Origin: an uncultured Caldisericales bacterium
GTDB lineage: Bacteria > Caldisericota > Caldisericia > JAAYUI01
NCBI GenBank assembly: GCA_964639885.1
Contig: CAZXEH010000001.1
Coordinates: forward strand, 151,205-215,204
Reading direction: 5' to 3'
Length of the DNA stretch: 64,000 nt
Of this stretch, positions 6,333-55,078 are shown piece by piece (the stretch's first letter is position 1; the number at the start of each line of letters is the position of its first letter). Below the pieces are notes generated by a model, which was given only the letters and a program-made list of their open reading frames with translations, made no database searches and had not been told where the DNA came from. Position numbers and translations under genes: made by a program.

Positions 6333-6341
6333 CAGGCAGGC

Positions 6342-26984: not shown

Positions 26985-26992
26985 GTTCCCTC

Positions 26993-32428: not shown

Positions 32429-33012
32429 AGGCGGTTCTTGACCAGCTGAGGCTGCTTTTTGTCAAGCCTTCACAGGCGGTGGACAGTAATCCTTCAATCA
32501 TCGGATCGGTCAGCTGGACAGCCATCTTATTGTTTGCCACGTTTCTCCTCCTCTTCAAAAATGCTCTCAATCCAAGCATCGTAAGCGTTTCTCCGGTTCA
32601 GCTGTTTACAAGCGACAAAATCCTTGAATCGTTTCTGGAAAATGTCAGCGCTCAATTTCTGCTCCTTTGCATCCCGTTTGCGGTTGTTCTCGGTGCAGAT
32701 GGTTTCAGGAAACTGCTCTCAAACCTGGCAATCCTGCAGATTCCGGCGCTCATCATGGCGGTTTTTGGTTTCCTGTACGAAACAGCATTCTGGCCACTCT
32801 ACAAAACGCTTCCAATCTCAGGACTTCAGGCAAAGGCTGCCTTTGATGCCATATTCCTTCTTTATCCTGCGCTTTTGATGCTGTTCTATCGTTATGTAAT
32901 CATCTGGATCGTGGCTGTCAAAGCCGGCGCAAACGGGAAGAAGGTGTTCCTGATGATTCTCATCCACGCTGCCCTTTGTGCCTGTTTGTTTTTCCTTGGA
33001 GGATTGATATGA
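32425..33012 (+). CDS. Multi-TM membrane protein of unknown function
   Basis: 195-aa hydrophobic ORF, translationally coupled on both sides. Confidence 0.5.
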   Translation: MKAVLDQLRLLFVKPSQAVDSNPSIIGSVSWTAILLFATFLLLFKNALNPSIVSVSPVQLFTSDKILESFLENVSAQFLLLCIPFAVVLGADGFRKLLSNLAILQIPALIMAVFGFLYETAFWPLYKTLPISGLQAKAAFDAIFLLYPALLMLFYRYVIIWIVAVKAGANGKKVFLMILIHAALCACLFFLGGLI

Positions 33013-34433: not shown

Positions 34434-35309
34434 CAGCACTGGGCCACGTTTCTGGCTGGACGTATGAGGTGCGGTGACGTCCATGACCAGATGGGTCTCC
34501 TCGTTGTTTATACCCATCATCGTGGCTTTTCTGCATAGCGGCAGGCTTTTTTTGCTTTTTGGATAGTCGTTGATTACGGTGAATTCCCATTTGGATTTTG
34601 GTGGAGCCGTAAGGCAGCAGGCTTTTGCCCTGTTTTCGAATATGAATACCGGCTGTTCCGGGGTGTTTGGCAACTCAGATGACGAAACAGGTAGCGACTT
34701 TGGCTGGTACAGCCCTCCCTTGCCGTCGACTATGGCTGGATAATACGCTTCAAGCGCATAGAGGTATCTGAACGGATTCTTGGAGGCATAGGATTCATAG
34801 ATGGTCGAGACTGTTTTGCCGCTGCTGTGGAAGAATGTCTGCATCAGGAAACTGTAGACTTTGTGTGTCGTGAAGAGTGCGTTGACAGCAATCCCGTTTT
34901 TGTAACTTGTCATGAATGGGCCGAGGTTGCACTGGCTCCGTTTGAGATCGAATGAGGTTGGAAAGTAGCGATGTCTGTTGATTTTCGAGCCGGAAGGCAG
35001 AAAGACGGCAAGCGTGAACTCAAGGCCGTCTTTCTGTGAAAGTCTTGTTCTTATGTTCCAGCTTTCCCCGCGGTAAAAATGCACCGTTCCCCAACGATTG
35101 CAATGATCACCCAGCAGGTTTCCCTTCACCGTCTGGGCAAGATTCTGGTTTTTCAGTTTCTCGAGCGTTTCCATGGACGTGCAGAGCGTGCCGTCTATGG
35201 GATCAGTTGCCAGAGCATCGACCATAAACCTTGCGACAGCCGGCGAAAGCCTCCCATATACAATCTCTTCAATAGTATCTATCTGTGGCAGATTTCTCAC
35301 GTCCGACAT
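34401..35309 (-). CDS. Hypothetical protein
   Basis: The ORF runs to a GTG at 35330. The first ATG is at 35309. No recognised motif. Confidence 0.4.
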   Translation of the reverse strand: MSDVRNLPQIDTIEEIVYGRLSPAVARFMVDALATDPIDGTLCTSMETLEKLKNQNLAQTVKGNLLGDHCNRWGTVHFYRGESWNIRTRLSQKDGLEFTLAVFLPSGSKINRHRYFPTSFDLKRSQCNLGPFMTSYKNGIAVNALFTTHKVYSFLMQTFFHSSGKTVSTIYESYASKNPFRYLYALEAYYPAIVDGKGGLYQPKSLPVSSSELPNTPEQPVFIFENRAKACCLTAPPKSKWEFTVINDYPKSKKSLPLCRKATMMGINNEETHLVMDVTAPHTSSQKRGPVLSFDNHCPRFR

Positions 35310-35323
35310 TGTATATAAGGGGT

Positions 35324-35341
35324 GTGACACCTATTTGTCAC
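35324..35341. promoter_or_regulatory. Perfect palindrome GTGACA-N6-TGTCAC in an AT-rich intergenic region, at the 5' end of the gene at 34401-35309
   Basis: 6-6-6 inverted repeat at 35324-35329 and 35336-35341. It resembles a CRP/FNR-class operator. Confidence 0.35.
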
Positions 35342-35564
35342 TACATATTTTGTTTATTTTACATAGTTTTATTTAGCCCAAGAAATTTAGTATCAGACAT
35401 CAAAAAGAAGCTATTTTTTTGCGATTAGGAAAAATATGTTGATTTTTTCAACGAAGTTTTAGGTTAAGAAATATTATATACTATAGGGTATAGTTATGTC
35501 AGTTAGCTAATACTAATTTAGAATACAAAATAGTTATAGACCAATAGATGACATTAATTCAATC

Positions 35565-36017
35565 TTAAAGTTCTCTATTTGCGATCTCGTCTATTATCGC
35601 CGATAGATTTTCGCTGACTTCCTTTGTCATTTCCAGCCCAAAGGTCAGAACTTCCTTTACTTCAACGGCATAAATCCTGAAATTCCTCGGTACTTTGACG
35701 CCCATTTCTTCACCCATCTTGATGGCTGTGGCGAAGTTGATGTCGTGGACGTTGCTGGCGTGGCTGGTTTCCTTGAAGTTTTCAGGCGTCAGTATCGCCA
35801 GTGAACCGATCGGGAACTGACCGGAGAATATAGAATCAACCAGCACTGCTTCATCATAACCATCGGATACGTCAACAATTGTCATGCCACCTGAGCTGAG
35901 TCTGACAAAATGGATGTCCGGGTTTGTGTTTCTTTTCTCAAGTTCATCGAGAATCAGGAGTCCAACGCGATCATCGGAGAGTATTGGGTTTCCAAGGCCA
36001 ATAATAACTTTTTTCAC
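35565..36017 (-). CDS. Hydrogenase maturation endopeptidase (HycI/HybD/FrhD family)
   Basis: MKKVIIGLGNPILSDDRVGL N-terminus. It is the last gene of the hydrogenase cluster. Confidence 0.8.
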   Translation of the reverse strand: MKKVIIGLGNPILSDDRVGLLILDELEKRNTNPDIHFVRLSSGGMTIVDVSDGYDEAVLVDSIFSGQFPIGSLAILTPENFKETSHASNVHDINFATAIKMGEEMGVKVPRNFRIYAVEVKEVLTFGLEMTKEVSENLSAIIDEIANREL

Positions 36018-36080
36018 ATTTCACCTTCGTAATAAAAAGAGCCGCTGATTTTGTCAGCGGCTCTTGTGATAGCTGGGTGC

Positions 36081-37586
36081 CTACCTGTTTGAAAGGGTCT
36101 GGACGACGTTGCCGTCTCTGGTCTTAAGCTCGATCTCCATCGGCATTGAGCCCGGGAGCGAGTGTGTGGCACAGGAGAAGCACGGGTCATAAGCCCTGAA
36201 GACCATTTCGATGAGGTTGAAGATACCATCGGAAACCTGGCCGTCCTTGATGAAAGCCTTTGCGGTTTTGGCGGTTTCGAAGCAGATGGCTCCGTGGTTG
36301 AAGGCTGTTGCAACGATCATGTTGGCCTTTGTTACAAAGCCGTTGTCGTCGCATTCGTAGTGGTGAACGATTGTTCCGCGTGGCGCCTCGATTGAACCCA
36401 TACCGAACTTCTTGTTTGTTTTTGGCATTGTTCTGACGTTTGGATCGAGGATCTGCGGATCGTTCATCAGTTCCTGAAGCCTTTCAGAGGCATAGAGGAG
36501 TTCAATGAGTCTTGCCCAGTGGTTGCCAAGCGAGAACTGAACCGGTCTTGGGCCGACTGTCTTCATGAAGCGATCCCATTCGGCGTTGGCAAGCGGTGTT
36601 GCCATTCCGTCCGAGACGTTGATTCTTGAGAGCGGAGCGACTCTTACGAGGCCTGACTTTGGGCCATCGGTGATGCCGTTCCAGCCCACTTTTTTGAGGT
36701 ACGGGAACTTGAGATAGCTCCACGGAAGAACCTGCTCACCGATGTAGTCGAGGTAGTCCTTTGCGTGGAAATTTGCAACTTCCTTGCCAGCCTGATCCAT
36801 GATTCTCATGTTGCCGGAGTAGAAGTTTGCATGATTTTTTTCATCAACCATGCCCATGTGGTAGCTGTCGCACTGGTACAGGTCTTTGTTTGTGATGATG
36901 TCGACGTATGCTTTGTTTCCAAGCACTACCTGGTTGAAGATGTCAATTGTCTTCTTTGAGAAGGCAATGAAATCCTTTGAGAGCTCGAGGATTTCTTTCT
37001 GCTGTGCCTTTGTGATCGGCTTGCTGATTCCGCCTGGGAGGCCAAACACCGGGTGGGTTGCCCTTCCACCGATGATTTCCTGAATCTTCTGGGCAAGAAC
37101 CCTCATGTGGAGGACTTCCTTGACCAGATCAGCACCGACGGCACCGATGAGGCCGATTACGTTTCTTTCGGCAACAGGTGCGCCTGGGCCAAGAACAAAG
37201 TCTGGAGCTGCAAGGGCGTAGAAATGGAGGATGTGTGAGTGGATCATGTGGGCGGCGTAGGCTGCTTCCCTGAGCATGTGGGCTGTCTTTGGTGGTTCGG
37301 CATCAAACATCATGTCCAGAACCTTGGATGAGGCGAGGTGGTGTGCCCACGGGCAGATGCCACACAGGGCGGTTACGATTCTTGGCATTTCTTCGACTGG
37401 TCTGCCTTTGCAGAATTCCTCGAAACCCCTGAGTTCGACTACCTGGAAATATGCTTCATCAACATTTCCCTTGTCATCGAGGAAGATTTCGATTTTTGCG
37501 TGGCCGTCAAGCCTCGAAACCGGCGAGACGGTCAGGTGGTTTGATTCCGCCTTGTGTGTCTTGTCAAAAATGATTGGTTCTGCCAT
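36081..37586 (-). CDS. mvhA: [NiFe] hydrogenase large subunit, MvhA-type (methyl-viologen-reducing / F420-non-reducing)
   Basis: N-terminal RxCGxC-like motif ALCGICPWAHH. C-terminal DPCFSCATH Ni-Fe ligand motif. Confidence 0.9.
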   Translation of the reverse strand: MAEPIIFDKTHKAESNHLTVSPVSRLDGHAKIEIFLDDKGNVDEAYFQVVELRGFEEFCKGRPVEEMPRIVTALCGICPWAHHLASSKVLDMMFDAEPPKTAHMLREAAYAAHMIHSHILHFYALAAPDFVLGPGAPVAERNVIGLIGAVGADLVKEVLHMRVLAQKIQEIIGGRATHPVFGLPGGISKPITKAQQKEILELSKDFIAFSKKTIDIFNQVVLGNKAYVDIITNKDLYQCDSYHMGMVDEKNHANFYSGNMRIMDQAGKEVANFHAKDYLDYIGEQVLPWSYLKFPYLKKVGWNGITDGPKSGLVRVAPLSRINVSDGMATPLANAEWDRFMKTVGPRPVQFSLGNHWARLIELLYASERLQELMNDPQILDPNVRTMPKTNKKFGMGSIEAPRGTIVHHYECDDNGFVTKANMIVATAFNHGAICFETAKTAKAFIKDGQVSDGIFNLIEMVFRAYDPCFSCATHSLPGSMPMEIELKTRDGNVVQTLSNR

Positions 37587-37588
37587 CT

Positions 37589-38605
37589 TTATTCCTCCAC
37601 ATCTTCCACAACTTCGTTGACCAGAGCCGAACCGAAGCTGTAGCGGTAGAATGTTCCGAGCGGGTCTGGAACCATTGCTGCGATTTTGTCGACTTCGTTC
37701 TCTTCCAGGTTGAGTTCGTCATCCCTGTAGTCGAGAACCGAGGCCAGACCGGAGAGGGTTGAGAGACCCTGATCCATGACGTGACCGGTTGGGCCATAAC
37801 ATCCCCTGCATGGCATGTTGCCGATGTTTGTGCACTGTGCACCACAACCGGCTCTTGTTGCTATGCCCGAGCAGATGATGCCCTGATCAAGGAAGCACTT
37901 TTCCTCATCAAGTGGAACCATGTGTGGTCTGTTGATCTTCTTGATGTTGTAACGGTCTGATTTCTTCCTCTTGCACTCATCGCACAGCGACTTCTCCGAG
38001 GCGATGATTGTGCCTTTTGGCGGAAGCGGTTTGCCGGCTGTTACAAAGCCGTGGACTGCCATGATAAGTGCTGTGATGGTCGGAACTGACGGCGGGCAGC
38101 CTGGAAGATAGTAGTCAACGTCGACGATCTCGTCCATCCTGACGATCTTCTGGTTTGCCTTTGGAAGGGTGAGGATGTTGCCCTTTGGGGTTTTCCACTC
38201 GTAGTTCGGGCGTTCGCCCTTTTCGTTTGTGGTTGAGGCTGTTTCTCCGTAAACGGTGTCCCAGATGGTCTTCATTCCACCCTTTACCGAGTTGGCAAGT
38301 GACGGGATGCCTCCAAATGCGGCACAGGCACCAAAAGCAACCATGAGGGCTGATTTCTTTCTGAGGAGTTTGACCATGTGGACGTTTTCCTCGTCCCTCA
38401 TGCAGCCGTGTACGAGGGTTGCAGTGATGTAACCGTCTGGCATGGCTTCAACGTCTTTGTATTTTGCGTCCATGTATGTCGGGCCGAATGCAAGATCGGC
38501 GATGCCGAAGAGGTCGAGCAGGAGTGAGTCGATGTCGAGCAACGCCATGTCGCAGCCGTCGCAGGTTGCAGATCTGTTGACAGCAATTCTAATTTTATCA
38601 GACAT
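37589..38605 (-). CDS. mvhG: [NiFe] hydrogenase small subunit, MvhG-type; cytoplasmic, with no Tat signal
   Basis: N-terminus SATCDGCDM. Multiple Cys clusters for three FeS centres. No twin-arginine leader. Confidence 0.88.
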   Translation of the reverse strand: MSDKIRIAVNRSATCDGCDMALLDIDSLLLDLFGIADLAFGPTYMDAKYKDVEAMPDGYITATLVHGCMRDEENVHMVKLLRKKSALMVAFGACAAFGGIPSLANSVKGGMKTIWDTVYGETASTTNEKGERPNYEWKTPKGNILTLPKANQKIVRMDEIVDVDYYLPGCPPSVPTITALIMAVHGFVTAGKPLPPKGTIIASEKSLCDECKRKKSDRYNIKKINRPHMVPLDEEKCFLDQGIICSGIATRAGCGAQCTNIGNMPCRGCYGPTGHVMDQGLSTLSGLASVLDYRDDELNLEENEVDKIAAMVPDPLGTFYRYSFGSALVNEVVEDVEE

Positions 38606-39053
38606 GAGCTTCCTCCTTCTTGTTCTTTGCCTCGATGAGTTTTTTCCTGATCGGGGAGATGCCCAGTTTGTCGATTTCCTTTGAGAATTCTCTCATCGTG
38701 TCGGCGAACTTCTGGCCTTCTGAGGCTGATATCCACTCAAGCCTGAAACGCTTTGAGGAAATTCCGAGCTGTTTGATCATCCTTTCAAGGAGGGCGATTC
38801 TGCGCCTTTCCCTGTAGTTGCCGGAGATGTAGTGGCAGTCGCCTGGGTGGCAGCCTGCAACGATGACTCCGTCTGCGCCCTTTGAGAAGGCTCTCAGGAC
38901 GATTTCAGGATCGATTCTGGCTGAACACATTGTTCTGATCATCCTGAAGTTTGCAGGCATCTGGAATCTTGACACACCGGCAAGGTCTGCACCGGCGTAA
39001 GTGCACCAGTTGCATGAAAGAACTACAATGAGCGGTTTTCTCTCTTCACTCAC
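38598..39053 (-). CDS. mvhD: MvhD, the [2Fe-2S] hydrogenase delta subunit that links hydrogenase to HdrA
   Basis: LIVVLSCNWCTYAGADLAG...CSARID...GADGVIVAGCHPGDCHY, the typical MvhD pattern. Confidence 0.85.
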   Translation of the reverse strand: MSEERKPLIVVLSCNWCTYAGADLAGVSRFQMPANFRMIRTMCSARIDPEIVLRAFSKGADGVIVAGCHPGDCHYISGNYRERRRIALLERMIKQLGISSKRFRLEWISASEGQKFADTMREFSKEIDKLGISPIRKKLIEAKNKKEEAHV

Positions 39054-42000
39054 AGAGCCACCTCCTCCAACACGGCATCAACCATGTTGACAAGCTGTTT
39101 TGTTGTGAATCCGTACTGTTCCATGGCACCGGATGGACAAGCACCGGCACAGGCACCGCAACCCTTGCAGAGAGCCTCGTCAACCTTGACTCTTCCGCGT
39201 TCGGTTTCCTTGTCGATGATTTCGAGCGAGAGCGCCTGGTATGGGCACATCGGGATGCAAATTCTGCAACCGTCGCAGACATCTGGATTGACCGTTGCGA
39301 TTGCCGCTTCAGCCATGAGGGTGTCCTTGCTGATGATTGTGAGGGCTCTTGCCGATGCAGCCGATGCCTGGGCGATTGTCTCGTCGAGCATCCTCGGGTG
39401 GTATGCCATGCCTGCAAGGAAGATGCCTTCTGTTGCAAAGTCGACCGGTCTGAGTTTGACGTGCGCTTCAAGGAAGAAGCCTTCGTCGTTGGTCGGAACC
39501 TTGAGGAATGTTGACAGAATCTTGTTGTCCGGGTTGGCTTCAACGCCTGCCGAAAGAACAACCATGTCTGCCGGAATCTCAAGCCAGCCATGAAGAACCG
39601 GGTCATGGGTTCTGACTACCAGCTTGCCGTCTTTTTCGATGACTTCCGGCTGGTTCTCGGGATCCCATCTTGAGAAGATGACGCCTTTTTCACGAGCCTT
39701 GTTGTAATAGTGTTCCCTGAAGCCGTAGGTTCTGACGTCTCTGTAAAGGACAAACACTTCAGCCTTCGGGAAGTCTTCCTTGAGAAGGTTTGCGTTTGCC
39801 ATTGCCGTTGAGCAGCAAATCCTTGAACAGTAGGGGTGTTCGTCGTTTCTTGAACCAACGCACTGGATCATTACCACAGTCTTGATGTCTTTTGGAAGTT
39901 CTTTTTTGATGAGCTTTTCCTCAAGCTCGATCTGGGTGATGACCTTTGGATTCTTGCCGTAGAGATATTCTTTTGGCTTGTGCTGGTTGGCGCCGGTTGC
40001 AACGATGATTGAGCCGACCGAGAGTTCCTTTTTCTCGTTGGTTTTTGTGTTCTTGATGACCGGCACAAAGTTTCCAACCGAACCTGAAAGGTCTGAAAGG
40101 ACGGTGTTCTTGAGAACGGTGATGTTTTTGTTTCTCTCAACCTCGAAAATCAAGCTCTTGAGGTATGCCTGCATGTCGCCAACTTCGTTTGTGTAGTAGG
40201 AGTGGTTGAGGTTTCCACCGAGTTTTTCATCTCTCTCGATGACTGTGACCGGGAAGCCGTTCTTTGCGATGTCGAGTGCGGCATTGAGTCCGGCAGCTCC
40301 GCCACCGATGACAAGCGCAGACTGGGTAACCGGAAGCGATGCCCTCTTGAGCGGTTGGAGCATTCTGGTCTTTGCGATTGCAACCCTGACAAGGTCTTTT
40401 GCTTTCTGTGTGGCTTCAGCCGGGGACTGCTGGTGAATCCATGAGCAGTGTTCGCGGATGTTTGCCATTTCGACAAGGTACGGGTTGAGGCCGGTTTCTC
40501 TCAGGGTTTCCTGGAAGAGCGGCTCGTGCGTCCTTGGGGTGCAGGAGGCAATGACCACGCGGTTGAGGTTGTTTTCCTTGATCATCTTGGAGATGAGGCT
40601 CTGTGTGTCCTGTGAGCAGGTGTAGAGGTTGTGCTCTGCGATGATGACGTTCGGAAGTGTTCTTGCATAGTTCATTACGTCGACAACGTCGACCGTGTTT
40701 GCAATGTTGATGCCGCAGTGGCAGACAAAGACGCCAATCCTCGGCTCTTCACCGGCAACGTCTTTTTCTGGCGGATATTCCTTTGCCACAAGGGCTGTCC
40801 TTCTGCCTTCCGCACAGTCGGCGCCGGCTTTTGCTGCTGCACCGATTGCCTGGGCGACTGTTTCAGGAATGTCCTTCGGGCCTTCAAACACGCCGGCAAC
40901 GTAGATTCCCTGACGGCTTGTCTGGAGCGGGTTGGTGTAGTCGGTCTTTGCAAAACCGTCTTCAGTGAGGTCGAGTCCGAGATCGTCGGCAAGTTTTTTC
41001 ACCGATTCGGAAATCTGGAGTCCGACGCTCAGGATGACGAGGTCAAACATCTCGGTCTTTTCAGAGCCGTCTTCGTCCTCGTACCTGATGATGACATTGT
41101 GGCTGTTCGGGTCTTCCATGACTTCTGCGATGCGGTTTCTGATGTAGCGGATTCCCCACTCGCCTTTTGCCCTGTTGTAGTACTGTTCAAAGCCCTTGCC
41201 AACCGCCCTCATGTCCATGATGAAGATGGTTGATTCAATGTCTGGAACGTGTTCCCTGGTCATGATGGCTTCTTTGGTCGCGTACATGCAGCATACGCCT
41301 GAGCAGTAGGGTTTGTTGATCTTTGGATCCCTTGAGCCAACGCACTGAATCCAGGCAATCTTCTTTGGCACCTTGCCATCTGACGGCCTGAGCACGTGTC
41401 CCTGATATGGGCCTGAGGCGTTGAGGATTCTCTCGTACTGGATCGAGCTCAATACATTGGGGAATCTGCCGTAGCCGTATTCCTGCTTGAGTGTCGGGTC
41501 GAATTCCTCGAATCCCGGGCAAAGAATGACCGAGCCGATGTCCAGAGTTTTCTCGGTTTCGGCGTCGTCATACTTTACCGCCTTGGCGAGGCAGACGTTT
41601 TCGCACATCTGGCATCCGATGCAGGCTTCGCGGTCGATTGTGGCAACCAGCGGAATGGCCTGTGGGAATTCGATGTAGATCGCTTTCCTGTTGACAAGCG
41701 ATTCGTTGAATGCGGATTCTCTTTCGATCGGGCAGTAGACCATACAGGTTCCACAGCCGGTGCAAAGCGATCTGTCAACAAATCTTGGGTGCACCTTGAC
41801 TGTTGCCTTGAAATCACCTGGTCTGCCGGTGATCTTTGAGACCTCGGCGTTCGGGATGATGTCGATGTTCTGGTTTCTGCCGCAAGCAACGAGCTTGGGT
41901 GACAGGATGCACATGGAGCAGTCGTTGGTTGGGAATGTCTTGTCGAGCTGCGCCATTACACCGCCGATTGCGGGAGATTTTTCAACCATGTAAACATGGA

Positions 42001-42100
42001 AGCCGGCTTCCACCAGGTCGAGCGATGTCTGGATTCCTCCGATGCCACCGCCGACAACCAGGACTGAACCAGCGCCTTTTACGTTCTTTTTAGTGTCCAT
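39050..42100 (-). CDS. hdrA: Extended HdrA-like flavoprotein (1016 aa): tandem duplicated FAD/thioredoxin-reductase-like HdrA modules plus multiple 4Fe-4S ferredoxin domains
   Basis: Two dinucleotide-binding motifs (VLVVGGGIGG and LVIGGGAAGLNAALDIA). HdrA-type Cys clusters including a C-terminal 2x[4Fe-4S] CDGCRICIPMCP / CKGCGACAGACP. Confidence 0.85.
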   Translation of the reverse strand: MDTKKNVKGAGSVLVVGGGIGGIQTSLDLVEAGFHVYMVEKSPAIGGVMAQLDKTFPTNDCSMCILSPKLVACGRNQNIDIIPNAEVSKITGRPGDFKATVKVHPRFVDRSLCTGCGTCMVYCPIERESAFNESLVNRKAIYIEFPQAIPLVATIDREACIGCQMCENVCLAKAVKYDDAETEKTLDIGSVILCPGFEEFDPTLKQEYGYGRFPNVLSSIQYERILNASGPYQGHVLRPSDGKVPKKIAWIQCVGSRDPKINKPYCSGVCCMYATKEAIMTREHVPDIESTIFIMDMRAVGKGFEQYYNRAKGEWGIRYIRNRIAEVMEDPNSHNVIIRYEDEDGSEKTEMFDLVILSVGLQISESVKKLADDLGLDLTEDGFAKTDYTNPLQTSRQGIYVAGVFEGPKDIPETVAQAIGAAAKAGADCAEGRRTALVAKEYPPEKDVAGEEPRIGVFVCHCGINIANTVDVVDVMNYARTLPNVIIAEHNLYTCSQDTQSLISKMIKENNLNRVVIASCTPRTHEPLFQETLRETGLNPYLVEMANIREHCSWIHQQSPAEATQKAKDLVRVAIAKTRMLQPLKRASLPVTQSALVIGGGAAGLNAALDIAKNGFPVTVIERDEKLGGNLNHSYYTNEVGDMQAYLKSLIFEVERNKNITVLKNTVLSDLSGSVGNFVPVIKNTKTNEKKELSVGSIIVATGANQHKPKEYLYGKNPKVITQIELEEKLIKKELPKDIKTVVMIQCVGSRNDEHPYCSRICCSTAMANANLLKEDFPKAEVFVLYRDVRTYGFREHYYNKAREKGVIFSRWDPENQPEVIEKDGKLVVRTHDPVLHGWLEIPADMVVLSAGVEANPDNKILSTFLKVPTNDEGFFLEAHVKLRPVDFATEGIFLAGMAYHPRMLDETIAQASAASARALTIISKDTLMAEAAIATVNPDVCDGCRICIPMCPYQALSLEIIDKETERGRVKVDEALCKGCGACAGACPSGAMEQYGFTTKQLVNMVDAVLEEVAL

Positions 42101-42116
42101 CTAGTCCCAGCTCCTT

Positions 42117-42893
42117 TCAGGCCTGAATGTACTGGAAGTATCTGCCGGACATGCCAGCCTCATGGACCATTCCCTTATGCTCGAGAAGCTGAACAAGACT
42201 GAACACCTTTGGTTCAGGCATGCCAGCCTGGGTAGCAATCTGCGGTATGGTCATCGGAACTTTTTCAATTGTTGAGAGGACGTGGTAGAGGTTGTATTTG
42301 TCCTCGATTGAATTGAGGATCATCTCATCAAACTGCTCTGCTGAAATGGTCTCGTTGTAAGTGTTGCCAGAGATCGTGAGCTTTGGTTCCTTGCCGACCA
42401 ACCAGCCGATTTCGGGATCGTTGGTGACTTTTCTGGCACAGCAGATGCGGTGTCTTGTCTCTTCAGGGGTGAGGGCTTCAGACGCTGCGGTTCCCAATGG
42501 ACCCAGTGAGAAGACCTTGTTCCTGAACTTGTCCAACGGATCGGCGATCAGCTGGAGGAAGCCGAGAGAGAGTTCAACCCTGCCTGGATCAAAACCTGCA
42601 AAACTGAGGAGGTTCTGGGCAAAGTGAACGCGTCTCTGGGCGATGAGGTTGCCTGTCCTGTAGTTGCACTCAAGCGGAGAGCATCCGGCTACGAAAACGC
42701 CGTCGGCTCCCATCTCAAGGGCTTCAAGGATGTTGTCGGCAAGGATTCTGCCTGAGCAGATGACCCTGACGATCTTGGAGATTCCCTTGTAGGGTGTTCT
42801 GACCGGGCCCACGAGGTCGCCTGAGGCCGAGGAGCACCAGTTGCAGACAAACGCCACTACTTTTGGTACATATCTTTTTTTAGTATCTGCCAT
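42117..42893 (-). CDS. MvhD/FlxD-like domain fused to a C-terminal winged-helix-like domain
   Basis: N-terminus VVAFVCNWCSSASGD...CSGRI...GADGVFVAGCSPLECNY (MvhD fold). The C-terminal ~100 aa carries the HTH-like LYHVLSTIEKVPMTIPQIATQAGMPEPKVFSLVQLLEHKGMV. Confidence 0.65.
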   Translation of the reverse strand: MADTKKRYVPKVVAFVCNWCSSASGDLVGPVRTPYKGISKIVRVICSGRILADNILEALEMGADGVFVAGCSPLECNYRTGNLIAQRRVHFAQNLLSFAGFDPGRVELSLGFLQLIADPLDKFRNKVFSLGPLGTAASEALTPEETRHRICCARKVTNDPEIGWLVGKEPKLTISGNTYNETISAEQFDEMILNSIEDKYNLYHVLSTIEKVPMTIPQIATQAGMPEPKVFSLVQLLEHKGMVHEAGMSGRYFQYIQA

Positions 42894-42902
42894 CTGTCCT
42901 CC

Positions 42903-43562
42903 TTAAAAGCTCTCAATGACTTCCCTGACGTGGTCGGTCAGCTTGTCGGTGGTGTGGAAGTTCATGAAGATCGCACCATACGGGCAGGAGGTTGCACAAA
43001 GTGAGCATCCCCTGCACAGATCACGGTTTGTTCTCGACTTGAGACCGCGTTCTGTCTGAACCATTGTGATGGCCGTAAATGGGCAGACTTCGACACAGAG
43101 GCCACAACCAACGCAAAGGTTGTCGTCTCTCATCTCGACTTCTTCGAAAATGAGGGCGTCCTTCGGGCAGGCATCAACACAAGCCGGTACATCGAGGTCA
43201 AGGCAGCGGTCGCACTTGAGAACGTGTGTGTAGTCTTCGTTTGGAAGGACTCCGCCGTACGGGCAGTTCATTACACACATCCAGCAGGCGATGCACTTGT
43301 CGTAGTCAATGTTGACCATGCCGGTTTCAGTGTCATAGTGCATTGCTCCTGTCATGCAGGCGGTGACGCACGGGGCATCATCGCAGTGACGGCAGCGGAG
43401 CGGATATGGCCTCGTTCCGGCAAGTTCGACGTGAACCCTCTGTTTTGTGAGTTCCTTCTCTATGCCGTCACCGTTGGTGTCGGCCGAGTGCTTCTTGAGG
43501 CATGCCCTTTCGCAGAGCCTGCATCCAACGCACTTTTCAAAATCCACTAGGATAGTTTTCAT
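42903..43562 (-). CDS. Polyferredoxin (multiple 4Fe-4S dicluster domains), FlxB/C- or MvhB-like
   Basis: At least four CxxCxxCxxxCP-type motifs (CVGCRLCERAC, CIACWMCVMNCP, CVGCGLCVEVCP, CRGCSLCATSCP). Confidence 0.8.
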   Translation of the reverse strand: MKTILVDFEKCVGCRLCERACLKKHSADTNGDGIEKELTKQRVHVELAGTRPYPLRCRHCDDAPCVTACMTGAMHYDTETGMVNIDYDKCIACWMCVMNCPYGGVLPNEDYTHVLKCDRCLDLDVPACVDACPKDALIFEEVEMRDDNLCVGCGLCVEVCPFTAITMVQTERGLKSRTNRDLCRGCSLCATSCPYGAIFMNFHTTDKLTDHVREVIESF

Positions 43563-43575
43563 TTCTCCAAGCCTC

Positions 43576-44811
43576 CTAGAAGATCAGAAGTGCGAGTTTG
43601 TCTTCAAGCACTTCTTCCTTGTGTCCTTTTATTGTGATCTGCTTTTTGACCAAACCGTTGATGGTTCCGATTGTGGCGATCTTTCCAACGAAGAGGGCGC
43701 CGGCAATCCTGTCATTCTGGATGACAACCTTGCGGTAAAGACCATCCTTGATGTTCTGTGAAATCATTACTTCGTGGGTTCCGCCTGTTGGTCTCACATC
43801 TCCGATGCTGATGCAGGAGAGGCCGTAGAACTGGAACGAGTTCATCCAGAACCAACCGCGGTATTCTTTTGGAATGCCGACCATGTTGAGTCCGGCAACC
43901 TGTCCCTGTTCGGAAGCCCTTGGCCAGACCAGGTTTGTTGTCGATCTACCAAACGATTCCTCGTAGGTCTCGGTGCAGTCGCCTGCTGCCCAGACATTTG
44001 GAATGTTTGTTCTCATGTGCTTGTCAACGACAATGCCTGATCCGCACTTGATTTCTGTGCCTCTAACGTATTTGAGGTCTGGGGCTACGCCTTTTGCCAG
44101 AACGACGATGTCTGTTTCGTGTTCGTCGCCTGATTCGAGAACCACGCCTTCAACCTTGCCGTTGCCGGTGATTGCGGTAACAGAAGTGTTTAGGATGATC
44201 CTGATTCCCTTGCGGTCGAGTCTCCTCTTGACGATTGATGCTGCTGTTTCGTCAAGGAGCTGGCTCATTATCTGTCCTGATGCGATTACACATGTTACAT
44301 CGACGCCAGCATCAACGAGACCCTGACAGGCCTTGAGACCGACTAGTCCGCCACCGACCACGACAGCCCTTTTGACCTGACCTTTTTTGATCATTTCCAT
44401 GATCTCAAGTGTCGGCCCAAGGTGTGTGAAGGTGAAGACGCCAGGAAGGTTTGCGCCTGGTGTGTCTGGGATTTGTGTCTTTCCGCCTGTTGCGATGAGG
44501 AGCTTCTCATAAGCGATTTCAGTTCCGTCGTTTAGGGCGAGTTTATTTTCAATCGGCATGTACTTGATGACAGGCTGACCGAGCATGAGCTTTATGTTTC
44601 TCTTGTCGTACCAGTCTTTTTCGTGGTAGTACATCTTGTCCTGAGTGGTCTCTCCGCCGATGAGATAGGAGATAAGCGGTCTGGAGTAGCTGAGATAAGG
44701 CTCTTCGGAGATGATCAGGATTTGGTTTTCCTTGTCGTGGAGGCGGATGGTGTCGGCGGCCCTGAGTCCGGCGATTCCATTACCTACGATGACATATTTG
44801 TATTTTTCCAT
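43576..44811 (-). CDS. FAD-dependent pyridine nucleotide-disulfide oxidoreductase family protein (NAD(P)H-binding flavoprotein; probable NAD(P)H input module)
   Basis: FAD motif YVIVGNGIAGLRAA. NAD motif AVVVGGGLVGLKACQGL. C-terminal WAAGDC. Confidence 0.8.
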   Translation of the reverse strand: MEKYKYVIVGNGIAGLRAADTIRLHDKENQILIISEEPYLSYSRPLISYLIGGETTQDKMYYHEKDWYDKRNIKLMLGQPVIKYMPIENKLALNDGTEIAYEKLLIATGGKTQIPDTPGANLPGVFTFTHLGPTLEIMEMIKKGQVKRAVVVGGGLVGLKACQGLVDAGVDVTCVIASGQIMSQLLDETAASIVKRRLDRKGIRIILNTSVTAITGNGKVEGVVLESGDEHETDIVVLAKGVAPDLKYVRGTEIKCGSGIVVDKHMRTNIPNVWAAGDCTETYEESFGRSTTNLVWPRASEQGQVAGLNMVGIPKEYRGWFWMNSFQFYGLSCISIGDVRPTGGTHEVMISQNIKDGLYRKVVIQNDRIAGALFVGKIATIGTINGLVKKQITIKGHKEEVLEDKLALLIF

Positions 44812-44819
44812 CGCCCCTC

Positions 44820-45728
44820 CTACTGTGCCGCGGCTGCCGGAGCCGGAGCGAACTTTTCAAGCAATGATTTCGGCTTGATCTTGTGCTGTGAGAAGCCGAG
44901 ATCGGCATCGGGAATGCCAAGTGCGAGTCCAAGAATCTGCGGGAGGAAGAGAACCGGAATGTCAATTGCTTTTCCGGTGTCACGCTCGAGCTTTTTCTGG
45001 TGGGCTTCGTACTGGATGTTGCAGAACGGGCAGTGGAGAACGAGTCCGTCAACGTCGCCTGCATACTGTTTGATTCTGTCGAGTTTGCCGGCTGCGATTG
45101 AAACGGCCGTGTTTTCCTTGATGCCAAGGATACCGCCGCCGCAGCACTCGTTCGGGTTGGCGATTGTCTTGACGGTTGCGCCTGTTGCCTTGATGAGTTC
45201 ATTGAGAGTGGCAGGAGCTTCCGGATTGTCAAACTTGCCAAACACTTCTGACGGCTTGAGATAGTGGCAGCCGGAGTGGGTGACGAAGGTTGCGCCCTTG
45301 AGCGGTTTTACAACCTTTTTCTTGATGCCTGCCGGGCCAATTTTTTCAGCCAGGAGCTTTGTGAAATGGATGACTTTTGCTTCGCCCTTGTAGCCTTTTT
45401 TACCAATCTTGGCAAGTTCGGCGTTGATTTTTTCACGTTCGGCCTTGTCGTGTCTGAGGTGTTCAGAAACTTCCGAGAGGGTTGAGTTGCAGGCGGAGCA
45501 GAGAGTGACTATGTCGAGACCCATCTCTTCAGCCTGTGCCAGCGCTCCGGCGGACATGACCATTGAGGCGTGCCTGTTGACGTTGACCATTGGCATTCCG
45601 CAGCATGAGGCGCCTGGCATGTCGACAAGTTCTATTCCGAGCTTCTCAGCGACTTTCCTTGCAGAAAGCTCATAGTGGAGAGCGCGTGCTGGTATGGTGC
45701 AACCTAGAAAGAGAGCGTACTTCATCAC
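44820..45728 (-). CDS. hdrB: Heterodisulfide reductase subunit B (two CCG domains)
   Basis: Cys-rich CCG motifs (ASCCGMP...TLCSACN and ECCGGGILG...LHCPFCN). Confidence 0.88.
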   Translation of the reverse strand: MMKYALFLGCTIPARALHYELSARKVAEKLGIELVDMPGASCCGMPMVNVNRHASMVMSAGALAQAEEMGLDIVTLCSACNSTLSEVSEHLRHDKAEREKINAELAKIGKKGYKGEAKVIHFTKLLAEKIGPAGIKKKVVKPLKGATFVTHSGCHYLKPSEVFGKFDNPEAPATLNELIKATGATVKTIANPNECCGGGILGIKENTAVSIAAGKLDRIKQYAGDVDGLVLHCPFCNIQYEAHQKKLERDTGKAIDIPVLFLPQILGLALGIPDADLGFSQHKIKPKSLLEKFAPAPAAAAQ

Positions 45729-46237
45729 TTGGCCTCCTTCTTAAGATCGTTTGATACAAGAACCGCCTCGATGAATTCCTTCTTGTTTTCGAGGGCTGGA
45801 AGTCCCATTTTTGCTCTCTTTTTGTTGTCGAAATCGGAGACCTCGTACATCCTGCCAAAGTTTGCCAGCACGTCTATCTGTGGAGTGTATGAAGGATGCA
45901 TGTGACCCTCGCGTGTTGCCAGATTTTTGAGCGCAAACATAAGGTCTGTAATCCCGACATCCTGTGGACAGCGTTCCTGGCAGGTGTAGCAATAGGTACA
46001 CAACCAGATGGGTTCATTGCCCAGCACTTCGTCTCTCATGCCCAAAAGCACCATTCTGATGATTTTTCTTGGATTGTAACTCTCATCGGTTGCTCTTACC
46101 GGACAGGAGGCTGTGCAGGTACCGCACTGGAAACAGCTTTTGATGCGTTCACCACCGGCAAGGCCAGCAACCTCGTACTTGAAGTTGGGGTTCAGGCTTT
46201 TTACCGGGATGGTGGCGGCGTCTTTCTGCTCACTCAC
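45725..46237 (-). CDS. hdrC: Heterodisulfide reductase subunit C (2x[4Fe-4S])
   Basis: CFQCGTCTASCP and CTYCYTCQERCP motifs. Overlaps the hdrB start. Confidence 0.88.
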   Translation of the reverse strand: MSEQKDAATIPVKSLNPNFKYEVAGLAGGERIKSCFQCGTCTASCPVRATDESYNPRKIIRMVLLGMRDEVLGNEPIWLCTYCYTCQERCPQDVGITDLMFALKNLATREGHMHPSYTPQIDVLANFGRMYEVSDFDNKKRAKMGLPALENKKEFIEAVLVSNDLKKEAK

Positions 46238-46411
46238 AAAATCACCCCTTTCAACAAATAATAATTGTCAATCTTTTTTAGAAAAAATGCTTTACACACA
46301 AACAAGATTGTATTTTCTAAAAAACTAGCAGTCAAGTGGAAATCGAAGGGTTTCAACGGTTAAAATAGGGTAAATGATCCAACCAAATTTTTGTCAATGC
46401 TGTATTCCTGT

Positions 46412-46429
46412 TTGTCAAGGCTTGACCAA
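46412..46429. promoter_or_regulatory. Palindrome TTGTCAAG-G-CTTGACCA in the divergent hdrC/46457 promoter region
   Basis: GTCAAG-G-CTTGAC is perfect at 46414-46426. Further TTGTCAA copies lie at about 46263 and 46391. It overlaps the -35 of the plus-strand promoter. Confidence 0.35.
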
Positions 46430-46450
46430 TAGAGATGGTTTCTATAGAAT
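46422..46450 (+). promoter_or_regulatory. Sigma70-like promoter TTGACC-17-TAGAAT placed 6 nt before the ATG at 46457 (leaderless candidate)
   Basis: Hexamers at 46422-46427 and 46445-46450. No SD. Confidence 0.5.
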
Positions 46451-46456
46451 CTGCAC

Positions 46457-46873
46457 ATGAACGAGATAGATAAAACCACTGCCCAGCAACCAGCACCAAG
46501 ACCGGAAATCAACGAAGATTCCAGACTTTTTTCAGTCCTTTCACATGCCACGATGGGGCTTGTCGGACTGCTAGTAATGTTCGGAGTGTTTGAACCAGTC
46601 AGGGGAAACCGATTTGCCGGCAAGCACGCAGTGTCATCGGTGATAAATGGAGCTATCATGGCCGTTGTTTTGCTGCTGTGGTACCTGATATATCAGGGTG
46701 TTGGCCAGTTCACTGGACCACAGAATGTTTTCTTCGTCTACCAGTATGGCCTGATGGGCATGCTGGTTATGTTCTATGGAACCGCCTTCTGGAGCGCAAT
46801 CAAGGCAAACAAGGGTGGCTATGCCAACATCATCTGGGTATCCCCAATAGTTAACAGGATTTTCAGAGGCTAA
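46457..46873 (+). CDS. Small integral membrane protein (DUF4870-like guess)
   Basis: 138 aa with three hydrophobic helices after a polar N-terminal tail. Confidence 0.45.
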   Translation: MNEIDKTTAQQPAPRPEINEDSRLFSVLSHATMGLVGLLVMFGVFEPVRGNRFAGKHAVSSVINGAIMAVVLLLWYLIYQGVGQFTGPQNVFFVYQYGLMGMLVMFYGTAFWSAIKANKGGYANIIWVSPIVNRIFRG

Positions 46874-46898
46874 CGCAAGCATTTCATTTGGGGGGTAT

Positions 46899-48134
46899 AT
46901 GAAAAAGTTCGTATCGATGGCAATTGTCGCGTTGTTGGTGGTTCTGGCAGATTGCCAGTCGATGGAAACAAAGGTATTTGTTGAGAAATTTTCATTAAAC
47001 TCTCAGCAATCCGATGGTTTTTCATTTACAAAACCTCAGATGTCAGCATACGATGGGTATTTTGTTGTGCATTCGCTTGGCAAGACAAAACCTCATGAAT
47101 CATCTTTCAAATGTCTTGATCTCAACAAAGGTGTTTTCACGTGGTTCCTCAATGTTGGTGTCGATGTGGTGCCAAATGAAGATTTTGATATAGGTTTCAA
47201 GGCTTTTAATGACAGACTTTACGTAAATCAGGGAGATACCTTTTGCAGGTTTGATCTCAAAACGGGCGGCCCCGTTTGGCAAACGAAAGAGAAAATAGAT
47301 TATGTGTTAAAGGCTGAACAGGACAAGATATTTTGCTTATCGCCCAAGATGACGGACAACGGGTTGGAATATCGAAAACTGCTGTGCTTCTGCTCAAATA
47401 AGGGAGAAATGTTGTGGTCTTCAAAAATACCCCAAGATTCCAATGATGTTAGAGTTGGTGAATCCGAGGTGGTGTATTTTACAAAAACACAAAAGCCGAT
47501 ATCCGTTCACGTTTTGTCAAAAGAAACAGGATCGCAGCTACAGAAGCTTCTTTCCATCACAAAAGTGATCCATAACCTCGATAACCCATCCAATTTTGGT
47601 TACATACGGGGCAATCAGATTCTAATGCATACGTCAAACAGTGAGGAAGTGTTACTGAATTTGGATAATATGCCTGTGTTGGATAAAGTAGAGTTTATTA
47701 TTGAAAACAACAGACTTTACATCGGGTCAACTGAAAAAAAACAATTTGACTGTTACACCACTGATGGCAAAAAAGTATGGTCAAGAGACCTAGGGGTAAT
47801 GGATATGATCGCCAGGACTAAATGTTTGGATTGTTTCATAACCTCGAGCTCAAAAAATGAATATCAAGTCGAGGGCATCGATCCGGTTACTGGCAAAAAG
47901 ATATGGAATGACAAGATATCTCTGGATAACCGCCCTTCAGTGGTTACGTCTGGTGATTATGCAATTTATCAAGCAGACTATTACAAAGTGTTGATTCGTC
48001 AGATTGAAACAGGCGAAGTTGTCCAAAGCCTCAAATTTTCTGAAAGAGTTAACAGTGTGTGGGGTATCCCTGGGTTTGGTATAATGGTTGCATGTGCTGA
48101 CAGCAAACTTCATTTCTTGGTAAAAACCGAATAA
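46899..48134 (+). CDS. Lipoprotein with PQQ-like beta-propeller repeats
   Basis: Signal and lipobox-like VLADC. Recurring G-x-x-W/VW repeat units (GGPVWQ, GEMLWSS, GKKVWSRDLG, GKKIWNDKI). Confidence 0.5.
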   Translation: MKKFVSMAIVALLVVLADCQSMETKVFVEKFSLNSQQSDGFSFTKPQMSAYDGYFVVHSLGKTKPHESSFKCLDLNKGVFTWFLNVGVDVVPNEDFDIGFKAFNDRLYVNQGDTFCRFDLKTGGPVWQTKEKIDYVLKAEQDKIFCLSPKMTDNGLEYRKLLCFCSNKGEMLWSSKIPQDSNDVRVGESEVVYFTKTQKPISVHVLSKETGSQLQKLLSITKVIHNLDNPSNFGYIRGNQILMHTSNSEEVLLNLDNMPVLDKVEFIIENNRLYIGSTEKKQFDCYTTDGKKVWSRDLGVMDMIARTKCLDCFITSSSKNEYQVEGIDPVTGKKIWNDKISLDNRPSVVTSGDYAIYQADYYKVLIRQIETGEVVQSLKFSERVNSVWGIPGFGIMVACADSKLHFLVKTE

Positions 48135-55069: not shown

Positions 55070-55078
55070 TTATTTATC

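Follow-up and report, generated by a model that had tools for sequence, protein, structure and literature searches.

Type II HdrA encoded together with an NAD(P)H-type flavoprotein module and a [NiFe] hydrogenase in a Caldisericia gene cluster: a candidate two-armed electron-bifurcating complex

Analysis of a 64,000-nucleotide stretch of DNA from an uncultured Caldisericales bacterium (assembly GCA_964639885.1, contig CAZXEH010000001.1, positions 151,205 to 215,204 of the forward strand; hereafter the window) revealed ten co-directional genes on the minus strand at 35565-46237, which encode a heterodisulfide reductase (Hdr) with a fused HdrA, a [NiFe] hydrogenase, a flavoprotein with an accompanying polyferredoxin and two proteins of the MvhD family. 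In transcription order, the genes are hdrC-hdrB-flavoprotein-polyferredoxin-long mvhD-hdrA-short mvhD-mvhG-mvhA-protease, as assigned with Pfam and NCBIfam. Our best explanation, which taken as a whole we consider about evenly poised between right and wrong, is that the ten genes form one chromosomal operon of an uncultured Caldisericia-related bacterium and encode a soluble HdrA-type bifurcating complex, in which the fused HdrA core would carry a hydrogenase arm and an NAD(P)H arm, each with its own MvhD. Flavin-based electron bifurcation has four structurally characterised classes, of which the HdrA type is one. Every component of the cluster is of a known family, and modular donors to Hdr are established (Mvh, Fdh, Elp, Flx, and BamGHI).

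The open reading frames lie at the coordinates given in an initial annotation of the sequence, which had described ten tightly packed co-directional genes, and the gaps between them are -4, 8, 13, 9, 16, -4, -8, 2, and 63 nt in transcription order, the last separating mvhA from the protease gene. The gene inventory of that annotation was likewise borne out, with Pfam and NCBIfam returning every domain it had called, and inspection of the translations found the cofactor motifs intact throughout the cluster. A 95-kb contig in the Joint Genome Institute (JGI) metagenome 3300022666 includes a stretch identical to the window, and the cluster is also present in a Logan assembly. Its surroundings are those of a chromosome, with the housekeeping genes rpsB-tsf-pyrH-frr-uppS-cdsA-dxr-rseP-ispG, and genes for an extracytoplasmic function (ECF) sigma factor and DnaB near the cluster indicate that the host is a bacterium. 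All parts of the cluster described below are on the minus strand.

The hdrA gene (39050..42100) encodes a 1016-aa protein that aligned to the HdrA chain 8rvu_a of the PDB with an E-value of 8.1e-221, in three permuted stretches. When set against solved HdrA chains, residues 13-383 align to the thioredoxin reductase (TrxR) core with its inserted ferredoxin domain, residues 445-616 to the N-terminal cluster domain of HdrA and the beginning of a second TrxR core, and residues 827-1015 to the last part of the TrxR core together with the C-terminal ferredoxin domain. The one chain comprises two TrxR units, seen as two Pyr_redox_2 stretches, with a single N-terminal domain, a single inserted ferredoxin domain and a single C-terminal ferredoxin domain. 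Unit 1 (residues 1-440) consists of a TrxR-like FAD domain with C61xxC64, E223, and K276 and the inserted ferredoxin domain, and is devoid of the N-terminal domain; C64, E223, and K276 are the equivalents of Cys197, E356, and K409 in the methanogen enzyme. Unit 2 (residues 445-1016) consists of the N-terminal cluster domain (GVFVCHCGINI), a second TrxR-like FAD domain and the C-terminal ferredoxin domain, and has no equivalent Cys pair and no DCSMC motif, with the Glu kept (E725) and Ala768 in place of the Lys. The Lys/Glu pair that marks a bifurcating FAD (K276 and E223) is found only at the N-terminal flavin site; equivalents of K409 and E356 are not present at both sites, as unit 2 is without the Lys.

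Type II HdrA is described as having two TrxR-like FAD domains in one polypeptide and the K409/E356 equivalents at both flavin sites (PMC12054007, PMC9012536). The 1016-aa protein departs from this description in the missing Lys of unit 2, and by its domain content is a type II fused pseudo-dimer, of a class widespread in bacteria and archaea. Fused or tandem HdrA proteins of ANME (anaerobic methanotrophic) archaea and Moorella display a complementary loss of the N-terminal domain in one unit versus Cys197 in the other (PMC9012536). The same complementary loss is seen in the window HdrA, where the order of the units is opposite to that of ANME HdrA3/4 (PMC9012536). The MetFV-HdrABC-MvhD complex of Moorella thermoacetica shares with the window a fused two-FAD HdrA and the complementary domain loss, and has an NADH-linked reaction, as the window complex may have, but its partner is a methylene-tetrahydrofolate reductase, and it has one MvhD, no hydrogenase and no separate NAD(P)H flavoprotein. 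BamE of class II benzoyl-CoA reductase is a fused HdrA dimer in which the bifurcating FAD lies by Lys280 and Cys59-Cys62 and the non-bifurcating FAD by Gln768 (bioRxiv 10.64898/2026.04.10.717634). Compared by published description, the window HdrA is likewise fused, with a CxxC near residue 60 and a Lys near residue 280 in almost identical numbering, and the residue at 768 of the second FAD is not Lys in either protein (Gln in BamE, Ala in the window).

These features hold across a large family. More than 8000 HdrA homologues were scored, and those of ~1000 aa among the matches listed are 54-98% identical to the window protein. The closest named relatives, again among the matches listed, come from Caldisericia metagenome-assembled genomes (94% and 79% identity), with ~1000-aa relatives at 54-58% identity in Bathyarchaeia, Freyarchaeota, Chloroflexi, and candidate divisions. 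Relatives are encoded in 600 stretches of species-representative genomes from Thermoplasmatota, Asgard archaea, Methanoperedens, Desulfobacterota, Bacillota, and others. K276 is present in all 104 fused HdrA sequences compared, and the seven cluster Cys sets that were sampled show essentially no variation among them. At position 768, which is more variable, 70 of the 104 have Lys, and Ala is confined to the six sequences of the window/Caldisericia-type cluster, all of which have it.

Origin of the 1016-aa protein by a frameshift or by the merging of two genes, which the initial annotation had named as a refuting condition, was rejected, the identical protein being found on two independent assemblies and the homologues numbering in the thousands; the length is real. 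The proposed resemblance to HdrA2 or HdrL did not hold up. HdrA2, an HdrA-MvhD fusion, was discarded because the window protein has no FlpD domain and its match to NF040770 (1022 bits, in three permuted stretches) lies below the cut-off of 1100. HdrL, a fusion of HdrA with glutamate synthase (PMC2702500), was discarded because HdrA has no PF14691 (Fer4_20) match and hence no GltD insert. A relative of 1495 aa (P0048) provides the contrast, with a GltD module inserted into its fused HdrA in HdrL-like fashion. The physiology of such proteins, which had been called largely unknown, is covered for type II HdrA by the BamE cryo-electron microscopy preprint and the Moorella MetFV-HdrABC-MvhD complex.

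A side observation concerns the shuttle-cluster ligand corresponding to Cys64. The HdrA motif DKTFPTxDCxx(C/U) was found 109 times in the more distant loci (L003-L082), with an in-frame TGA at the Cys64 position in 46 of these instances, mostly from Desulfobacterota; the in-frame TGA at this ligand position suggests selenocysteine. The window HdrA has Cys.

The hydrogenase arm and the disulfide-reducing partner are represented by familiar components. The hdrC product (45725..46237) is a 170-aa protein with two [4Fe-4S] motifs, in which CxxCxxCxxxCP occurs twice (Cys35/38/41/45 and Cys80/83/86/90), and matches the HdrC model TIGR03290 with an E-value of 3.1e-37, below the model cut-off. HdrB (44820..45728; 302 aa) has two CCG domains (PF02754, two matches) of the kind that hold non-cubane [4Fe-4S] clusters, with the Cys sets Cys10, CC42/43, and C77xxC80 and Cys154, CC195/196, and C233xxC236. 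The short MvhD (38598..39053; 151 aa, PF02662 at 1.4e-53) is a [2Fe-2S] adaptor with five Cys residues, whose gene shares 4 nt with hdrA and 8 nt with mvhG. MvhG (37589..38605), the hydrogenase small subunit of 338 aa, matches PF01058 and the VhuG model (1.9e-56, below cut-off) and contains 12 Cys residues, consistent with three clusters. The large subunit, MvhA (36081..37586; 501 aa), is of the MvhA, Hdr-associated type, with R-x-C75-G-x-C78-xxx-H and D-P-C469-xx-C472-xx-H motifs, a VhuA model match of 6.2e-120 (below cut-off) and a 26-aa tail past the final His of the motif, of the kind cut off by a maturation protease. A hydrogenase maturation endopeptidase of 150 aa (35565..36017; PF01750, and TIGR00072 at 1e-25, above the cut-off of 47.45) completes the cluster. 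The best PDB match of MvhA is the MvhA chain 5odc_F; it is also near the large subunit 7t2r_D (1.4e-106), which we take to be from the NAD/ferredoxin-bifurcating NiFe-HydABCSL.

Homologues of all six subunits of MvhADG-HdrABC (PDB 5ODC), the H2:CoM-S-S-CoB, ferredoxin oxidoreductase of hydrogenotrophic methanogens, are therefore encoded in the window with their cofactor motifs intact, with E-values against the 5ODC chains of 3.1e-114 for MvhA, 2.9e-59 for HdrB (5odc_B), and 1.3e-204 for HdrA, and with the Lys/Glu pair of the bifurcating FAD kept in HdrA unit 1. The two systems differ in that the methanogen HdrA is a homodimer of ~650-aa, five-domain chains whereas the window encodes one fused pseudo-dimer, and in that the window adds an NAD(P)H-type arm and a second, long MvhD. 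Moreover, all NCBIfam equivalog models fall below their cut-offs in this comparison, and CoM-S-S-CoB is an unlikely substrate since the host is a bacterium.

Between hdrCB and hdrA lie three genes that are foreign to the methanogen system. The initial annotation had called this a Flx-like input module, and the NAD(P)H-type flavoprotein, Fe-S protein, and MvhD paralogue found at this position fit that description. The first of the three (43576..44811) encodes an AorC/PadH-like FAD flavoprotein of ferredoxin-reductase type, with Pyr_redox_2 (4.1e-57) and Rubredoxin_C domains and a match to a PadH-type NCBIfam model of 1.8e-82, below cut-off. Its best PDB match over the full length is AorC (8C0Z_E, 1.8e-46), followed among solved relatives by NirB-family dehydrogenases, CoA-disulfide reductases, and ferredoxin or rubredoxin reductases. 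The GxGxxG Rossmann motif occurs twice (GNGIAG and GGGLVG), the second being a putative NAD(P)H dinucleotide site, and the YxRPxxS motif reads YSRPLIS. A role as CoA-disulfide reductase or Nox was excluded, as there is no Cys at SFxxC and no CxxxxC pair; the ferredoxin-reductase YxRPxxS motif and the Rubredoxin_C domain also speak against it. AorC itself is the FAD subunit that enables the tungsten aldehyde oxidoreductase of Aromatoleum to reduce NAD+.

The second gene (42903..43562) encodes a polyferredoxin of 219 aa with 24 Cys residues in six [4Fe-4S] motifs, whose PDB matches are WorS (9MQX_E, 6.4e-23) and AorA (8C0Z_C, 2.9e-17). An AorA/WorS-like four-cluster domain occupies residues 1-140. 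Residues 146-219 show 36% identity with residues 940-1012 of the window HdrA (E-value 5e-16), including the helix that follows the ferredoxin domain, and this C-terminal part also matches positions 575-642 of the NCBIfam HdrA2 model; by this alignment the segment is a copy of the HdrA C-terminal ferredoxin domain. The pair resembles AorABC of Aromatoleum aromaticum (PDB 8C0Z) in combining an AorC-like flavoprotein with an AorA/WorS-like four-cluster ferredoxin (WorS is a subunit of WorABCSL, PDB 9MQX), but differs from these systems in the added HdrA-type domain of the polyferredoxin and in having no tungsten catalytic subunit; neither the cluster nor the other scanned ORFs of the window encode a protein with an AFOR domain (the tungsten-pterin subunit, AorB/WorL).

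When metagenomes were scanned with the flavoprotein, its nearest non-Hdr relatives were found at 36-44% identity, also preceded by a polyferredoxin. The HdrA-like extension of the polyferredoxin occurs only in the Hdr-linked versions (coverage ~1.0 versus ~0.65). At the two non-Hdr loci inspected (L096 9558-14702 and L120 9591-14723), the polyferredoxin-flavoprotein pair is neighboured by genes of a split glutamate synthase (GATase_2, Glu_synthase carrying a ferredoxin domain, and GXGXG), where it apparently replaces GltD as the NAD(P)H input. From this placement of its closest non-Hdr relatives, the pair appears to be a portable NAD(P)(H)/Fe-S module.

The FlxABCD-HdrABC system of Desulfovibrio, reportedly described by Ramos et al. 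in 2015, is said to feed HdrABC from an NAD(P)H flavoprotein through Fe-S proteins and an MvhD homologue. The window is similar in that an MvhD homologue (the long MvhD, corresponding to FlxD) is encoded with an NAD(P)H module next to hdrA. It differs in its fused HdrA, in the Mvh hydrogenase encoded in the same operon and, as the initial annotation correctly stated, in the family of the flavoprotein, which is Pyr_redox_2/Rubredoxin_C and AorC-like rather than of the FAD_binding_6/NAD_binding_1/DHODB_Fe-S_bind composition of FlxA.

The third gene (42117..42893) encodes the long MvhD, a 258-aa protein in which the MvhD [2Fe-2S] domain (PF02662 FlpD, 1.8e-29) is followed by an extension of ~120 aa. 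Cys17/20/46/71/76 have the same five-Cys spacing as in the short MvhD, and the two proteins are 33% identical over the MvhD domain. Within the extension, residues 210-254 gave weak helix-turn-helix (HTH) matches, to HTH_IclR (8.5e-5) and TrmB (2.8e-4). An AlphaFold model (pLDDT 79.5) consists of the MvhD fold followed by a helical domain, and a Foldseek search of the model against the PDB returned only MvhD chains (5odh_D, TM 0.77 on the target), which cover the MvhD half; the benzoyl-CoA reductase structure was not among these PDB matches of the whole model. In that enzyme, the MvhD homologue BamF is >100 residues longer than usual, and its winged HTH binds the electron-input module (bioRxiv 10.64898/2026.04.10.717634). 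By description, the long MvhD may resemble BamF in having an HTH that links an NAD(H)-dependent input module to the core, but has Cys where BamF has Sec19. The remainder of the Bam core differs, with a HydBC-like BamGHI input module in place of the AorC/AorA-like module of the window, a fused BamD in place of free HdrB and HdrC, and tungsten BamBC, absent from the window, which has in addition a [NiFe] hydrogenase arm.

An exhaustive profile search with the long MvhD retrieved 301 cluster representatives at E <= 1e-30, among which dozens are full-length proteins of ~250-265 aa and several are fused to large redox proteins; a word-index homologue search found few full-length relatives, and one source annotates a relative as "delta subunit/predicted transcriptional regulator." A hidden Markov model of the C-terminal extension placed a long MvhD directly upstream of a fused hdrA in at least 14 species-representative loci.

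The gene set is conserved well beyond the window. Clusters with the window order (type I) were found on Caldisericia-type contigs (L083-L086 and L091-L094), with HdrA 73-79% identical. A second order (type II), flavoprotein-flavoprotein-polyferredoxin-long mvhD-hdrA-mvhD-mvhG-mvhA-protease-hdrC-hdrB, was found on bacterial contigs from hydrothermal and hot-spring sources (L087, L099, L102-L104, L106, L109-L111, and L172), with HdrA 55-58% identical, and from the long mvhD onward on a further contig that ends upstream (L171). Both were located through the closer HdrA relatives and the metagenome scan with the flavoprotein. Since HdrA relatives of 79%, 73%, and 55-58% identity are accompanied by the same genes, the arrangement is more than chance. 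Among 80 more distant GTDB loci (HdrA identity <=55%), none has the flavoprotein or polyferredoxin beside the fused HdrA. In these 80 loci an mvhD nearly always follows the fused hdrA and a long mvhD often precedes it, an order whose recurrence in many lineages lends indirect support to the earlier proposal that the two MvhD proteins are two adaptors.

The gene ahead of the long mvhD varies, being a second fused HdrA in many archaea. At a Chloroflexi locus (L173) an HdrL-like protein and an HdrA lie ahead of the long mvhD, and a downstream gene encodes a FAD_binding_6/NAD_binding_1/DHODB_Fe-S_bind protein, presumably of FlxA type. At a Bathyarchaeia locus (L005) the long mvhD is preceded by a GltD/NfnB-like NAD(P)H flavoprotein that is not homologous to the window flavoprotein, yet carries a C-terminal ferredoxin domain 38% identical to that of the window polyferredoxin; the locus continues long mvhD-hdrA-mvhD-hdrC-hdrB-mvhG-mvhA-protease. 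Of the comparative evidence, this convergence on one design with a non-homologous module argues most strongly for a joint function of NAD(P)H, H2, HdrBC, and the fused HdrA. The HdrL-like relatives, with GltD inserted into a fused HdrA, also count in favour of the proposed complex.

Three further observations were made at these loci. Tandem fused hdrA genes split by a long mvhD, with a short mvhD after them, occur at many archaeal and some bacterial loci (L004, L006, L007, L009-L012, L014, L015, L017, L029, and L064), in some cases followed by mvhG and mvhA, an arrangement suggestive of two HdrA pseudo-dimers linked in a chain. At the Bathyarchaeia locus, the gene immediately ahead of the GltD-like flavoprotein (5812-6414) encodes a GcvH-like protein of the lipoyl-carrier type, reminiscent of the lipoate-binding proteins that accompany sulfur-oxidising Hdr-like systems. 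Type II clusters adjoin a gene for a 443-462-aa membrane protein, absent from the window, with thioredoxin/glutaredoxin-like N-terminal domains and a CcdA/DsbD-like transmembrane part (L172 16044-17375 and L171 9129-10460, in both beside hdrB, and L087 2600-3988); this neighbour hints at a possible protein-disulfide substrate.

In canonical Hdr, the mobile arm is composed of the electron donor, MvhD and the HdrA N- and C-terminal domains, and its swing shifts both the [2Fe-2S] cluster of MvhD and the shuttle cluster with respect to the partner protomer's bifurcating FAD (PMC12350162). In the window HdrA only unit 2 supplies the arm-forming N- and C-terminal domains, while the FAD with the Lys/Glu pair sits in unit 1. 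This division matches one canonical arm (MvhAG and the short MvhD) that would serve one bifurcating flavin, as in BamE. The first arm would thus be formed by MvhA, MvhG, the short MvhD, and the HdrA N- and C-terminal domains. The second would be built from separate proteins, namely the flavoprotein, the polyferredoxin and the long MvhD, with the C-terminal domain of the polyferredoxin standing in for the C-terminal ferredoxin domain missing from HdrA unit 1 and the helical, HTH-like tail of the long MvhD docking the NAD(P)H module. The asymmetric two-armed complex is favoured because unit 1 would need, for a second arm, a C-terminal ferredoxin domain of HdrA type and an MvhD, and the NAD(P)H module supplies both as separate proteins.

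Electron pairs from H2 (first arm) and/or NAD(P)H (second arm) would reach the bifurcating FAD. From there, the low-potential electron would reach ferredoxin by way of the shuttle cluster linked to Cys64 and the inserted ferredoxin domain, and the high-potential electron would pass through the TrxR-domain cluster and HdrC to the non-cubane clusters of HdrB and a disulfide. Reverse, confurcating flow would be equally possible, and a fermenter might make H2 from NAD(P)H and reduced ferredoxin.

Several points weigh against the two-armed complex. It is gene order alone that joins the modules into one particle; the pseudo-dimer offers one canonical pair of arm-forming domains, and a second arm is without structural precedent. 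Moreover, the second FAD offers the second arm no obvious point of entry for its electrons, being considered structural in BamE and having no Lys here. At many loci it is another fused HdrA that precedes the long MvhD, and the long MvhD may accordingly belong to the upstream partner instead of the downstream HdrA. Its HTH matches are weak (E-values of the order of 1e-4), with the Foldseek coverage confined to the MvhD half. Finally, the flavoprotein (VTCVIASGQ) is without the acidic residue that usually specifies NADH; this residue is present in AorC, as a Glu at the end of strand β2, and in one of the two flavoprotein paralogues of the hydrothermal clusters (VTVVE).

The alternative that survives best, although we regard it as doubtful, is an HdrA-based bifurcating or confurcating [NiFe] hydrogenase that catalyses 2 H2 + Fd_ox + NAD(P)+ <-> Fd_red + NAD(P)H (Fd, ferredoxin), running toward H2 in a fermenter, with the NAD(P) arm as a high-potential acceptor or donor instead of a second mid-potential donor, and HdrBC confined to a side or regulatory thiol reaction. 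The organism looks fermentative, with 2-oxoacid:ferredoxin oxidoreductase genes 6 kb from the cluster, AorC physiologically reduces NAD+, and the similarity of MvhA to 7t2r_D, taken to be NiFe-HydABCSL, points the same way, as does a 2025 survey that proposed coupling of NADH and H2 for the mvhADG-containing HdrA-GltD clusters of Bathyarchaeota. However, hdrCB is kept in every version of the cluster, so that the disulfide couple appears integral. In addition, an MvhD-type protein connects the NAD(P) module, and MvhD lies on the mid-potential input path in all solved Hdr complexes (bioRxiv 10.64898/2026.04.10.717634, PMC12350162), not part of the high-potential branch, which leaves through the TrxR cluster.

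It is also conceivable, but unlikely, that the two modules form alternative complexes on one HdrA-HdrBC core, one with Mvh and its MvhD and the other with the flavoprotein, polyferredoxin, and long MvhD, so that no two-armed supercomplex exists. Mvh and Elp interchange on Hdr in Methanothermobacter in this manner, each with its own MvhD homologue (ElpC versus MvhD) (PMC12350162), and the single pair of N- and C-terminal domains in the fused HdrA amounts to one canonical arm. Yet the methanogen loci are separate and nickel-regulated, whereas both modules here lie in one tight operon and are probably co-produced, and the HdrA-type C-terminal ferredoxin domain of the polyferredoxin would be redundant if the module used the resident arm.

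The weak Pfam matches of residues 210-254 to DNA-binding IclR and TrmB HTH domains, together with the relative annotated as a predicted transcriptional regulator, raise the further possibility that the 258-aa long MvhD is a [2Fe-2S] redox-sensing transcription factor for the operon, and that the flavoprotein and polyferredoxin reach HdrA directly or act elsewhere. This is improbable: the gene lies in the middle of the operon, 9 and 16 nt from its neighbours, long MvhD is always beside a fused HdrA across bacteria and archaea, its relatives occur fused to large redox proteins, and the equivalent winged HTH in benzoyl-CoA reductase is a protein-protein interface (bioRxiv 10.64898/2026.04.10.717634). 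An artefact, whether through two hdrA genes joined by a frameshift, a chimeric assembly or unrelated genes that adjoin by chance, can be set aside with near certainty: nothing was found in its favour, and the same protein and the whole cluster occur on two independent assemblies, the ~1000-aa proteins listed among the thousands of homologues scored carry conserved Cys sets in both halves, and synteny is kept at 55-79% HdrA identity.

The favoured two-armed complex can be taken further, tentatively, to an asymmetric hub with both arms bound, which would interconvert H2, NAD(P)H, ferredoxin, and thiol/disulfide in one particle, and to a general wiring rule for type II HdrA in bacteria and archaea of the form X-ferredoxin domain-long MvhD-fused HdrA-short MvhD-Y. 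If true, such a hub would be the HdrA-based counterpart of the NAD- and ferredoxin-dependent confurcating hydrogenases. Type II HdrA is abundant in uncultured anaerobes (Bathyarchaeia, Asgard archaea, Chloroflexi, Desulfobacterota, and Caldisericia), mostly without assigned partners, and the operon names both partners of a fused HdrA: one is a hydrogenase, the other an NAD(P)H flavoprotein of which a homologue has been solved. The copy of the HdrA-type ferredoxin domain beside the long MvhD provides a testable rule for how a second module could be attached to the asymmetric core. Should the complex couple H2, NAD(P)H, and ferredoxin, the inference of hydrogen metabolism from MvhA-type (group 3c) genes in fermentative bacteria would change; should it be merely a dual-donor disulfide reductase, it would add one more exchangeable donor module to those already established. 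The searchable literature, which is incomplete, contained no description of an AorC/AorA-type NAD(P)H module on Hdr, of such a module alongside a complete Mvh hydrogenase in one operon, or of an HdrA C-terminal ferredoxin domain that has moved to a place beside a long MvhD, and nothing specific on this cluster in Caldisericia or on AorC together with HdrA.

A consensus scan for expression signals revealed a sigma-70-like promoter candidate upstream of hdrC (46307..46335; TTGACT-17-TACAAT, 10 of 12 matches), a consensus match only and no evidence of function, and an AGGGG ribosome-binding site precedes the GTG start of hdrC. In the 63-nt gap between mvhA and the protease gene, the scan for terminator-like sites found a G+C-rich hairpin of 12 bp (7 GC) followed by TTTATT (36037..36065), which is also a consensus match only and a lead only, since the total of such sites in the region equals the shuffle expectation; it is possibly a partial terminator, an attenuator of protease expression or a stabiliser of the upstream mRNA. 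Scans for tRNAs and Rfam families returned one tRNA-Met only, distant from the cluster.

The G+C content is 51-53% over 36001-46000 as compared with 42-46% in the flanks at 34001-36000 and 46001-48000, and is likewise ~52% over 52001-56000; the excess in the cluster may stem from the make-up of Fe-S enzyme genes or from horizontal acquisition. The latter region contains the genes, at 52714-56107 (minus strand) and 6 kb from the cluster, for a three-subunit 2-oxoacid:ferredoxin oxidoreductase (POR gamma, thiamine pyrophosphate-binding beta, and alpha), which is a likely local source of reduced ferredoxin and is preceded by a protein with an ethylbenzene-dehydrogenase-like (EB_dh) haem domain. 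On the other side, at 22038-29488 (minus strand), a hybrid histidine kinase of 1648 aa with PAS, HisKA, HATPase, and receiver domains adjoins an 831-aa protein with a C-terminal domain similar to the N-terminal domain of copper amine oxidase. Between the cluster and the ECF sigma factor, at 31684-35330, lie four genes without a Pfam match, encoding proteins of 302-309 (just downstream of the protease), ~474-505, 195, and 80-83 aa in that order, and the same four genes are kept beside the cluster in the Caldisericia relatives (e.g. L083 14570-18320).

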